Program-made: the position numbers
From: a virus
Taxonomy: Duplodnaviria > Heunggongvirae > Uroviricota > Caudoviricetes
DNA: 9,393 bases
IMG/VR virus record: IMGVR_UViG_638341086_000018
Span: 1 to 9,393 of that record
Strand: one strand, 5' to 3'
Shown: one piece after another, positions 1 through 3,000 of the stretch
Position numbering within the stretch: position 1 is the stretch's first letter
How the letters are laid out: the number at the start of each line of letters is the position of its first letter

Positions 1-3000
1 AATGACGGGACTAATGGCCAGATAGGGCCGGAGGCGGCAGGCAGTCTTGTGCAGCTGATTGACCAGCGGGTGCAGGCGGTGATGCTGTCCATGCGACGTG
101 ACGGAGGAATGCTGAGTGGCTGAGATAAAAACGCTGCATCTGGTCCCGCGTGAAGGGATGCAGGTGAGTGAGAAGCCGTCGGTGGTGAGGGTGCGGTTTG
201 GTGACGGTTATGAACAGCGCCGCCCCACAGGGCTGAATCCTCAACTGAAGACGTTTCAGGCGGTGTTCCGGGTGACGGATGAGTCAACCCGGCGCTGGCT
301 GGAAGAGTTTTTATCGTGGCATGGTGGTTACCGTGCCTTTTTGTGGCGACCGCCGAAACATAACCGGACGGTGAGGGTTGTGTGCCGTGAGTGGAGTGTC
401 ACGGATAATGCCCGGTACAGTGATTTCAGTTGCACGATAGAGCAGGTGGTGAACTGATGCAGGATATTCACGAAGAAAGCCTGAACGAGTCGGTTAAATC
501 AGAGCAGTCACCGCGGGTGGTGCTCTGGGAAATTGACCTGACGGTGCAGGGTGGTGAGCGGTATTTTTTCTGCAATGAGCTGAATGAAAAAGGGGAGGCG
601 GTTACCTGGCAGGGGCGGCAATATCAGGCATACCCGATTGACGGCAGTGGCTTTGAGATGAACGGGAAGGGCAGCAGTGCCCGCCCGTCGCTGACGGTGT
701 CGAATCTGTTCGGTCTGGTCACCGGGATGGCGGAGGACCTGCAGAGCCTGGTGGGGGCCACGGTGGTCCGCCGCCGGGTGTATGCCCGTTTTCTGGATGC
801 GGTGAATTTTGTGGCGGGCAATCCGGAAGCGGACCCGGAGCAGGAGCTGAGCGACCGCTGGGTGGTGGAGCAGATGTCAGAGCTGACGGCCATGACAGCC
901 TCGTTTGTGCTGGCAACACCGACGGAGACGGACGGAGCGCTGTTTCCCGGTCGCATCATGCTGGCGAACACCTGTATGTGGGATTACCGGGGAGATGAAT
1001 GCGGGTATAACGGTCCTGCGGTGGCGGATGAGTTCGATAAACCCACCACCGATATCCGTAAGGACAGATGCAGCAAGTGCATGCGCGGGTGTGAGATGCG
1101 CGGCATGGTGGCTAATTTTGGCGGTTTCCTTTCCATTAACAAACTTTCGCAGTAAATCCAATGACACAGACAGAATCAGCGATTCTGGCGCATGCCCGGC
1201 GGTGTGTGCCTGCGGAGTCGTGCGGCTTCGTGGTGAGAACGCCGGAGGGGGAGCGGTATATCCCTTGTGTGAATATCTCTGCAGAGCCGGAGGCGTATTT
1301 TCGTATTGCACCGGAAGACTGGCTGCAGGCAGAGATGCAGGGGGAGATTGTGGCACTGGTCCACAGTCATCCCGGTGGTCTGCCCTGGCTGAGCGAGGCC
1401 GACCGGCGGCTGCAGATAAAAAGCGCACTGCCCTGGTGGCTGGTCTGCCGGGGTGACATTCACAAATTCCGCTGCGTGCCGCACCTGACGGGACGGCGCT
1501 TTGAGCACGGGGTGACGGATTGTTACACCCTGTTCCGGGATGCATACCATCTGGCGGGAATTGATATGCCGGATTTTGAGCGTGAGGATGACTGGTGGCG
1601 CAACGGTCAGAACCTTTACCTGGACAATATGGCGGTCACAGGCTTTTACCGGGTGCCCCTGTCCTCTGCACAGGCGGGCGATATTCTGCTGTGCTGCTTT
1701 GGTGCTTCGGTACCGAACCATGCCGCCATATACTGCGGCAACGGTGAGCTGCTTCACCATCTGCCTGAACAACTGAGTAAACGGGAGAGGTATTCTGAAA
1801 AATGGCAACGACGAACGCATTCTGTCTGGCGTCACCGCCACTGGCACGCATCTGCCTTCACGGGGATTTACAACGATTTGGCCGCCGCCTCAGCCTGTAC
1901 GTGAACACGGCAGCGGAAGCCATTCGCGCCCTGTCGATGCAGATGCCGGGCTTTCGCCGTCAGATGAACGAAGGGTGGTACCAGATACGTATTCGCGGTG
2001 AGGACACGGCACCGGAGGCGGTGTACGCCCGTCTTCACGAACAGCTGGGTGAGGGAACGGTCATCCACATTGTGCCGCGACTGGCCGGGGCCGGAAAGGG
2101 TGGACTGCAGATTGTGCTGGGGGCGGCAGCCATCGTGGGCTCTTTCTTCACTGCCGGAGGCTCGATGGCGTTATGGGGTACAGCCCTGAGTGCCGGTGGT
2201 TTTTCTGCCACCACGATGCTGTTTTCACTGGGTGCCAGTATGATTCTGGGCGGTGTGGCCCAGATGCTGGCCCCGAAGGCAAAAACACCGGATTACCGCG
2301 CAACGGATAACGGCAGACAGAACACGTATTTTTCGTCACTGGACAATATGATTGCCCAGGGGAACCCGATGCCGGTGCCTTACGGTGAAATGCTGGTTGG
2401 CTCCCGGCGAATCTCCCAGGACATCAGCACCCGTGATGAAGGCGGTGGCGGAAAGGTCGTGGTTATCGGGCGGCAGGGGTAAAAAGAATAAAAAAATCCC
2501 GCAGTGTTGCGGAGCTGCGGGAGAGTTACGAAGATTAACTATAGAGAATTATTCTTATGTCACGACAAAAACATTAACGCAGAGAAATTATTAGCACCAC
2601 AGTCAGTTTGTGAAAATGTGAAGATATTCATAAGTTTTATTCAGTGATGATACAGGCATCCTCCGGGATGCCTGTTGTTTTTGTGCGTAACAGTTATCAC
2701 AGTAAAGGGTGAGACAATGGGCAAAGGTGGCGGCAAGGCGCACACGCCGGTTGAGGCAAAGGACAATCTTAAGTCCACGCAGATGATGAGCGTGATTGAT
2801 GCCATTGGTGAAGGGCCGATTGAAGGCCCGGTGAAGGGACTGCAGAGTATCCTGGTGAACAAAACCCCGCTGACGGACACGGACGGTAATCCCGTGATAC
2901 ACGGTGTGACCGCGGTCTGGCGTGCCGGGGAGCAGGAGCAGACACCACCGGAAGGCTTTGAGTCCTCCGGAGCTGAAACCGGACTGGGCGTGGAAGTGAC

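Follow-up and report, generated by a model that had tools for sequence, protein, structure and literature searches.

The stretch of DNA analyzed here, referred to as the window, comprises the 9,393 nucleotides (nt) of the IMG/VR virus record IMGVR_UViG_638341086_000018, and its sequence is found unchanged within a lambdoid prophage of the Escherichia coli E110019 chromosome. Reading across it, the tail genes L, K, I, and J are followed by lom, tail fibre genes, and the beginning of nleH, which is frameshifted. Our subject is the spacer between I and J, and in particular a predicted small RNA (sRNA) gene located within this spacer on the strand opposite to the tail genes. An initial annotation, made from the sequence alone, had described the spacer as longer than that of phage lambda, AT-rich, and devoid of any plausible open reading frame (ORF), and all three properties hold. 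The spacer measures 234 nt (2483–2716) compared to 60 nt in lambda (15445–15504), and its G+C content is 39% versus 54–65% in the flanks. The one noteworthy ORF, of 47 amino acids (aa; 2504–2647), shortens to 24 aa in the most similar allele, and a comparison of 34 distinct spacers reveals no conserved ORF. The features of the spacer and of the two genes that border it are as follows.

1802–2482, plus strand: tail assembly gene I, 226 aa, forming the left edge of the spacer; stop codon at 2480–2482.
2490–2580, minus strand: predicted sRNA gene of the PasB/EcOnc22 family (see below), given as the predicted primary transcript from G2580 to the end of U7 at 2490, 91 nt; assigned by homology to the E. 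coli Sakai and E2348/69 loci.
2490–2522, minus strand: intrinsic terminator of the sRNA, with the stem CCCGCAG/CUGCGGG pairing 2521–2515 with 2504–2498, a 10-nt loop (2514–2505), an A, and then U7 (2496–2490).
2530–2538, minus strand: conserved single-stranded UUAAUCUUC directly 5' of the terminator, a candidate seed or Hfq-contact segment, in which U.AUCUU is invariant across alleles.
2548–2556, minus strand: (ARN)3 run, AAGAAUAAU, a candidate motif for the distal face of Hfq.
2557–2580, minus strand: 5' segment of the RNA, with a conserved GCRUUA and U-run followed by an allele-specific stretch, as defined by the allele alignment.
2587–2614, minus strand: sigma-70-type core promoter of the sRNA, with the −10 element AATAAT (2592–2587) and an allele-specific −35 element TTCACA (2614–2609).
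2615–2640, minus strand: near-invariant block upstream of the core promoter, ATAAAAnTTcTGAAnnTCTTCACATT in the RNA sense, at about −35 to −60; a candidate UP element or activator site.
2652–2685, plus strand: intrinsic terminator-like hairpin between the sRNA promoter and J, with a 10-bp stem and the loop TCCG, followed by TGTTTTTGTG.
2717–6190, plus strand: tail tip gene J, forming the right edge of the spacer, with its ATG at 2717 according to the RefSeq annotation of the identical E110019 locus and the ORF list.

The two signals that delimit the leftward unit had both been recognized in the initial annotation. The minus-strand promoter, TTCACA-16-AATAAT (2614–2587), agrees with the consensus at 10 of 12 positions, better than any other sigma-70-like site in the whole window (9.4 kb), and the minus-strand terminator with its U7 was recovered where it had been placed, with an optional extra pair (U2522–A2497) extending its stem. 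The tandem tgtgaa motif was found as well, at 2609–2614 and 2617–2622. Between 2300 and 2900 there are three terminator-like sites, compared to 0.3 expected from shuffled sequences, and two promoter-like sites by a consensus scan, compared to 0.7 expected.

Relatives of the RNA in pathogenic E. coli

The claim at the center of the initial annotation, namely that the spacer encodes a leftward prophage sRNA of about 90 nt running from a promoter in the spacer to the minus-strand terminator, is backed by two experimentally verified homologues at the same position and on the same strand. For these, expression, size, binding to and dependence on Hfq, and RNA–RNA chimeras have all been observed directly. 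The first is from the enterohemorrhagic E. coli (EHEC) strain Sakai, where peaks from Hfq CRAC (cross-linking followed by cDNA analysis) that were predicted to be sRNAs include EcOnc22 (Sp15), EcOnc23 (Sp14), and EcOnc24 (Sp11), which are mutual homologues (Table S2 of Tree et al. 2014, PMC4104026). EcOnc22 gives a Northern band of ~85 nt and is destabilized without hfq (PMC4104026). In the current Sakai record, all three coordinates correspond to I–J spacers, on the strand opposite to the tail genes.

This correspondence depends on the genome version. The EcOnc coordinates of Tree et al. 2014 and Waters et al. 2017 refer to NC_002695.1 and are 135–144 bp lower than those of NC_002695.2 in the region 1.9–2.9 Mb, and an uncorrected look-up of EcOnc22 in NC_002695.2 lands on the plus-strand hairpin rather than on the sRNA body. 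A zero offset between the versions was ruled out, as AgvB1 is absent at its published coordinates. The EcOnc22/23/24 part of the chimeric reads obtained by RNase E cross-linking, ligation, and sequencing of hybrids (CLASH) is GCCTGAAAAATAACTCCATAACGTTAATCTTCA (Waters et al. 2017, PMC5286369), and this is the exact antisense strand of the Sp15, Sp14, and Sp11 spacers, which fixes the offset at +135 to +137. The offset-corrected Hfq-CRAC peak covers GATGCC...CCCGCAGCTCCGCTAA, that is, the predicted RNA body together with the 5' arm and loop of the terminator, and the position of UUAAUCUUC falls within it.

The Sakai allele shares position, strand, and predicted length (91 nt) with the window RNA, and 73 of the 91 nt are identical. 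It has the same GUUAAUCUUC motif and terminator stem and, across the spacer, the same plus-strand hairpin with one compensatory change. It differs in its −35 element (TTCCGG versus TTCACA here), in its loop sequence, and in a variable segment, GCCUGA...CCAUAACGUU, that is absent from the window allele and is considered below.

The second homologue, PasB (pathogenicity-associated sRNA B), was described in enteropathogenic E. coli (EPEC) O127:H6 E2348/69 as an 83-nt RNA encoded on the minus strand from 1466343 to 1466261, in prophage PP6 between E2348C_1436 and E2348C_1437 (Table S6 of Pearl Mizrahi et al. 2021, PMC8550237). These two genes are I and J, which places PasB in the I–J spacer, and the spacer of E2348/69 can be aligned over its entire length with that of the window. 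The Northern probe used for PasB, AATCCCGCAGTGATCGCGGAGCT (PMC8550237), corresponds to the plus strand of the sRNA terminator, its counterpart in the window being AATCCCGCAGTGTTGCGGAGCT at 2495–2516. The published data describe an abundant, Hfq-dependent RNA. In the hfq mutant, PasB decreases with a log2 fold change of −6.8 (a 100-fold drop) under the activating condition (PMC8550237). RIL-seq (the ligation and sequencing of interacting RNAs) recorded 37 interactions, in which PasB is the second RNA in 99–100% of its chimeras, the typical sRNA pattern (PMC8550237). The base mean of pasB ranges from 482 (activating) to 1082 (non-activating), compared to 5 and 15 for the flanking I and J in the same libraries, and PasB is more abundant in the non-activating condition (PMC8550237).

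Like the window RNA, PasB is antisense to the tail genes, with its −10 at the same position, and it has the upstream block (ATAAAAnTTCTGAAnnTCTTCACATT), the 5' GCGUUA and U-run, and the ARN run at the same place. Both RNAs end in an identical terminator stem and U7. The two are nevertheless well diverged, in that BLAST aligns only the 3' 33 nt (94% identity). The middle of the RNA reads GCCCGAGUAACAAAAACAACUCCUUCACA in PasB and GUCGUGACAUAAGAAUAAUUCUCUAUAG in the window, the motif adjoining the terminator reads UUGAUCUUC and UUAAUCUUC, respectively, and the loop is 11 nt long in PasB compared to 10 nt here. Intermediate alleles connect the window, Sakai, and PasB types.

Since these homologues are verified at the same position and on the same strand, the leftward unit belongs, judged by alignment and gene context, as a diverged allele to a known sRNA family, PasB/EcOnc22–24, which experiments have detected on two occasions. 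The initial annotation left it undecided whether the locus had been described before; it has, as EcOnc22/23/24 in EHEC and as PasB in EPEC. By the same comparison, these names designate one locus. The field for EHEC homologues is blank for PasB in Table S6 (PMC8550237), and the EcOnc names are absent from the 2026 survey of Pas sRNAs (10.64898/2026.05.13.724894). While the locus itself is in one respect ordinary, the equivalence of PasB and EcOnc22–24 merges Hfq-CRAC, RNase E-CLASH, RIL-seq, and Northern data that have so far been treated apart, for a family whose targets are still largely uncharacterized.

A scan of the window with Rfam release 15 gave no match at the gathering score, and no model in that release therefore appears to cover PasB/EcOnc22; at E-values up to 10, the best sub-threshold hit in 2380–2820 was an unrelated Bacteroides sRNA (E = 0.33). 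Two other groups of prophage sRNAs were considered and rejected as identities for the window RNA. AgvB and AsxR are likewise short prophage-encoded RNAs with ARN motifs that bind Hfq, whose 5' part varies and whose 3' part, of ~42 nt, is conserved. However, their genes occupy the moron site downstream of PR', whereas the window locus lies in the tail operon between I and J, and there is no similarity to them in sequence or by covariance model (RF02702, RF02703), the latter at E-values up to 10 in 2380–2820. HnrS is a multicopy, Hfq-associated, prophage-encoded sRNA that is enriched in EHEC and EPEC, lies in late genes, and represses hha (PMC13502914). It corresponds to EcOnc10/11/12 at another locus, with EcOnc11 located ~5 kb from AgvB1 in Sp10, and is set apart from the window RNA by this locus and by its listed length of 66 nt.

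Alleles and distribution of the family

The initial annotation had asked whether the spacer is a conserved unit among lambdoid prophages. Our spacer set, drawn from Sakai, E2348/69, and IMG/VR contigs, holds 103 loci with 34 distinct spacers and 19 distinct RNA sequences; a 17-mer scan of viral contigs gave 71 loci with 37 distinct sequences, 11 of which proved unrelated and were left out. Across this set, the sRNA signals are kept in alleles that have diverged elsewhere. The 7-bp terminator stem is invariant in the 19 distinct alleles and is followed by U6–7, while its loop, of 10–16 nt, is the most variable part of the gene. The motif adjoining the terminator, GUUAAUCUUC, is conserved across the family, and at least three ARN triplets are found at the same place in all four alleles tested. 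The allele-specific parts of the RNA are the stretch from the U-run to UUAAUCUUC and the terminator loop.

The promoter follows the same pattern. A −10 element is kept at one position in every allele, as AATAAT, TATAAT, ATAAAT, or TATCAT. The assignment of TTCACA at 2614–2609 as the −35 stands for the allele group of the window but fails elsewhere, because this copy of the motif is not conserved; it lies within ~20 variable nt between the upstream block and the −10, and these hold a TTCACA −35 in the window type only. The second TTCACA copy (2622–2617) is invariant across alleles but, at 24 nt upstream of the −10, it is too distant to serve as a −35.

This second copy belongs to the upstream block, which contains TGAA-N4-TTCA and whose conservation is surpassed within the spacer only by that of the terminator stem. 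Known regulators were tried as an explanation for the block and rejected. For a CRP site, the plus-strand left half AAATGTGA is exact and the right half TCAnA agrees at 4/5 positions, but the center at about −44.5 fits neither class I nor class II; for ArgR, OmpR, and RcsB boxes, the spacing does not match. The breakpoints of partial BLAST matches fall at the edges of the block (query positions ~130 and 158), which suggests that it may also act as a recombination junction.

One IMG/VR contig (L056), with a spacer of 478 nt, carries two sRNA-like units in tandem between I and J, separated by what appears to be the 3' end of a second type of I gene; the locus probably arose by recombination between two prophages. 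Its upstream unit has diverged strongly, with UUAGUCAAC in place of UUAAUCUUC, and retains the promoter block and the terminator stem.

The fact that partial BLAST matches break inside the spacer, together with the tendency of lambdoid phages to recombine at such junctions, could also be taken to mean that the spacer has no function, being an AT-rich linker or a junction left by recombination in which the signals arose by chance. This is barely credible, since it is contradicted by the published data: in two pathotypes, abundant RNAs that depend on Hfq and have the predicted size are made from homologous loci. The conservation of the signals across otherwise divergent alleles and the excess of promoter and terminator sites over shuffled sequences argue against it as well.

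The family is widespread in E. coli. Among 5,426 complete E. coli genomes, megablast with PasB found 999 loci in 956 genomes (median one per genome), with the Sakai allele 1,246 loci in 542 genomes (median two, up to six), and with the window allele 772 loci in 559 genomes (median one, up to six), only 13 of the records being at least 95% identical to the window allele. Another strain with this allele is O55:H7 RM12579, at 98.9% identity. A search with the window allele at word size 11 extended this to 3,264 loci in 1,421 genomes with up to eight per genome, including six places in E110019 itself. A comparison of the spacer with the phage collection gave matches in 149 records; every one is an E. 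coli phage, and most are Shiga toxin (Stx)-converting. A search of the genome collection with the hairpin pattern CCCGCAG-N8-18-CTGCGGGATTTTTT was uninformative on the taxonomic range, as the matches listed included only unrelated terminators from unrelated phyla.

These numbers differ from the published picture. The Pas survey, which used BLAST at word size 28 and a 75% coverage filter, reported that PasB has the least diverse sequence among the Pas sRNAs and that a genome usually contains a single variant of it (10.64898/2026.05.13.724894). When PasB was used as the query at survey-type settings (word size 28), neither the window locus nor the Sakai locus was recovered. Such settings are blind to alleles of the Sakai and window types, which explains both the low reported diversity and the single variant per genome. 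The family is thus larger and more diverse than the survey states.

For the window allele, what is observed directly is its homology to PasB and EcOnc22–24, the position and conservation of its signals, and its divergence from the other alleles. A broader proposal, which we put forward tentatively and consider somewhat less probable than its opposite, is that the I–J spacer sRNAs, instead of being one well-conserved sRNA, make up one large modular family, present in at least 1,421 of the 5,426 genomes. Its members would combine a fixed chassis (promoter-control block, GCRUUA, ARN run, UUAAUCUUC, and terminator) with target-recognition segments swapped by recombination. If so, the host-directed regulator introduced would differ from one prophage tail module to the next, multi-lysogens would carry several of them, and the regulon of the window allele would be distinct from those of PasB and EcOnc22. 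The invariant block at −35 to −60 would then be the site of a shared regulator that gives condition-specific expression, PasB being higher in non-activating conditions.

Proposed mode of action and targets

We consider it very likely that the spacer contains an independent, moron-like unit opposite the tail genes, which encodes an Hfq-dependent, trans-acting base-pairing RNA and is an allele of the PasB/EcOnc22–24 family. The sigma-70 promoter with the −10 AATAAT would start the RNA at about G2580, and transcription would end at the U7 terminator at 2490. The RNA would be made alone in lysogens, in which the tail operon is silent. A U tail and an ARN run are the usual determinants for binding to the proximal and distal faces of Hfq, respectively, and the window RNA would probably use its terminator U-tail and its (ARN)3 run in this way. 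It would then act in trans by imperfect pairing with host and prophage mRNAs. For PasB, the seed has been proposed at the position of UUAAUCUUC (Zhu, Shabalina and Storz 2026 preprint, 10.64898/2026.05.13.724894).

In Sakai, EcOnc22 and EcOnc23 form CLASH hybrids with yjbJ, a core gene (PMC5286369). The Sakai allele is predicted to pair with the yjbJ CLASH fragment with a ΔG of −25.5 kcal/mol over its 5' 57 nt, through the blocks CCAUAACGUU and GCCUGA in the variable segment. For the window allele and PasB, which lack both blocks, the corresponding values are −12.7 and −13.8 kcal/mol. Because the yjbJ-pairing blocks of the Sakai allele are missing from the window allele and PasB, the alleles probably differ in their targets, and the conserved UUAAUCUUC may give them a shared target core. 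Different prophages would then probably deliver sRNAs with different target sets. The alleles diverge in the segment that Sakai uses for its one CLASH-supported partner, and tail modules may accordingly carry different regulatory cargo, which is relevant to the rewiring of host gene expression by EHEC and EPEC strains with several prophages.

Several points weigh against this reading or limit it. The expression of the window allele, its contacts with the faces of Hfq, its seed, and all of its targets are read across from the homologues. The CLASH hybrids of EcOnc22–24 comprise one or two reads each (PMC5286369), and the motif table of the RIL-seq study contains no entry for a PasB target motif (PMC8550237). 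The fold of the window RNA is only modestly better than that of shuffled sequences (z = −1.98), and consensus folding of the alleles recovers the terminator stem only, without covariation, because this stem never varies. The 5' ends of the homologues also differ from the prediction. While the −10 predicts a start at G2580 and a 91-nt RNA, the 5' end annotated for PasB aligns 13–15 nt downstream of the predicted start, as does the left edge of the CRAC peak in Sakai. Transferred to the window, the PasB end would place the mature 5' end near 2567 and give an RNA of ~78 nt, and the sizes reported for the homologues (83 nt for PasB and ~85 nt for EcOnc22 on the Northern blot) fall between 78 and 91 nt. 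Either the RNA is processed or the predicted start is off. The sequence near 2567 (GU/UUU, the slash marking the cut) fits the RNase E motif RN/WUU, and EcOnc22–24 have been found bound to RNase E (Waters et al. 2017, PMC5286369), which makes processing by RNase E plausible.

The position of the gene raises the question of whether the RNA acts on the genes opposite to it. In such a cis role, the RNA, which is complementary over its full length to the intercistronic I–J part of the late polycistronic mRNA, would pair with it and cause cleavage or a block of J and the downstream genes, either in lysogens, where it would silence leaky tail expression, or during lytic growth. The gene does lie antisense within the late operon, and every allele keeps it at one fixed position, including those whose sequence has diverged; the adjoining plus-strand terminator would also limit non-antiterminated rightward transcription into J. 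We nevertheless regard a mainly cis role as unlikely, given that PasB forms chimeras with many unlinked RNAs, as is typical of trans-acting sRNAs in RIL-seq (PMC8550237), that the EcOnc22/23 hybrids involve the core gene yjbJ, and that hardly any transcription of the tail genes is seen in lysogens under the conditions in which PasB is abundant. The two roles are compatible and do not exclude each other.

Other short Hfq-binding RNAs from EHEC prophages act as anti-sRNA sponges, and the window RNA could by analogy with AgvB or AsxR sequester an sRNA such as GcvB through its CA-rich terminator loop. The ARN run would suit such a function, since it suggests distal-face binding, as proposed for AgvB, and one PasB chimera partner in the part of the RIL-seq tables covered is an intergenic RNA next to pasA (PMC8550237). 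The initial annotation had also speculated that the terminator loop pairs with GU-rich sRNAs, but this finds no support in the comparison of alleles, where the loop is the least conserved part of the gene, nor in the predicted pairing with GcvB, the only core sRNA tested, which is matched by 75% of shuffled sequences compared to 2% for the AgvB control. In addition, there is no similarity to the Rfam families of AgvB and AsxR, and 30 of the 37 PasB interactions fall in one table column, which we read as coding or 5' untranslated region (UTR) partners (PMC8550237). A sponge function is quite improbable, and trans-acting pairing with mRNAs is preferred.

The plus-strand hairpin and neighboring genes

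The plus-strand terminator described in the initial annotation is present, with its 10-bp stem at 2652–2675 followed by TGTTTTTGTG. The hairpin is structurally conserved, with 98% of the cells of its alignment paired in 10 distinct sequences and one compensatory change (C-G to U-A), and it presumably stops non-antiterminated rightward transcription before J. This strong and conserved terminator could instead mark the end of a second, rightward RNA of ~40 nt, forming a divergent sRNA pair with the leftward gene. Pairs of sRNA genes do occur at other prophage sites, although these are convergent or overlapping antisense rather than divergent. The proposed promoter, TTGTGA-17-TAAGTT, matches only 7 of 12 consensus positions, was not reported by the consensus scan, and is not conserved, Sakai having TGCCGG and GAAATT in its place. 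No plus-strand peak is listed for the spacer in the Hfq-CRAC data (PMC4104026), and no such feature appears in the part of the RIL-seq tables covered (PMC8550237). The short rightward transcript of the initial annotation is for these reasons very improbable.

In a second class of spacers (L087 and 40 other loci, 342–343 nt), the sRNA gene is kept and the J-proximal 75 nt after the conserved block, with the plus-strand hairpin, are replaced by ~180 nt of unrelated sequence. Two other hairpins occur in this new sequence, one of 13 bp, AAACCCCGGTATC-TGCT-GATACCGGGGTTT, and another that has a T-run, AGCATG...CATGCTTTT.

Together with the hairpin at 2652–2675, the strongest terminator-like sites in the window are two plus-strand hairpins at 6209–6228 and 6884–6905, which flank lom (6258–6857) in a classic moron arrangement. 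Further downstream, sigma-70-like sites on the plus strand at 8554–8582 and 8658–8687, each with 9 of 12 consensus positions, lie around the start of nleH (from ~8613), which encodes an effector of the type III secretion system (T3SS). RefSeq marks nleH as frameshifted in E110019, and nleF lies beyond the window.

On the other side of the spacer, the start of gene I differs between annotations. The ATG at 1802 gives a protein of 226 aa and overlaps the end of K (1161–1904), while the RefSeq start at 1901 lies 33 codons further in. As the alignment of the long form with lambda I begins at residue 1, with 65% identity across 225 aligned positions, gene I is probably the 226-aa form. Another cargo insertion in the tail module is seen in NZ_CP008805.1 (O157:H7 SS17; L001, 36–1630), where two Arc-family genes and an antirepressor gene (ant) are located upstream of K, beside a truncated L.

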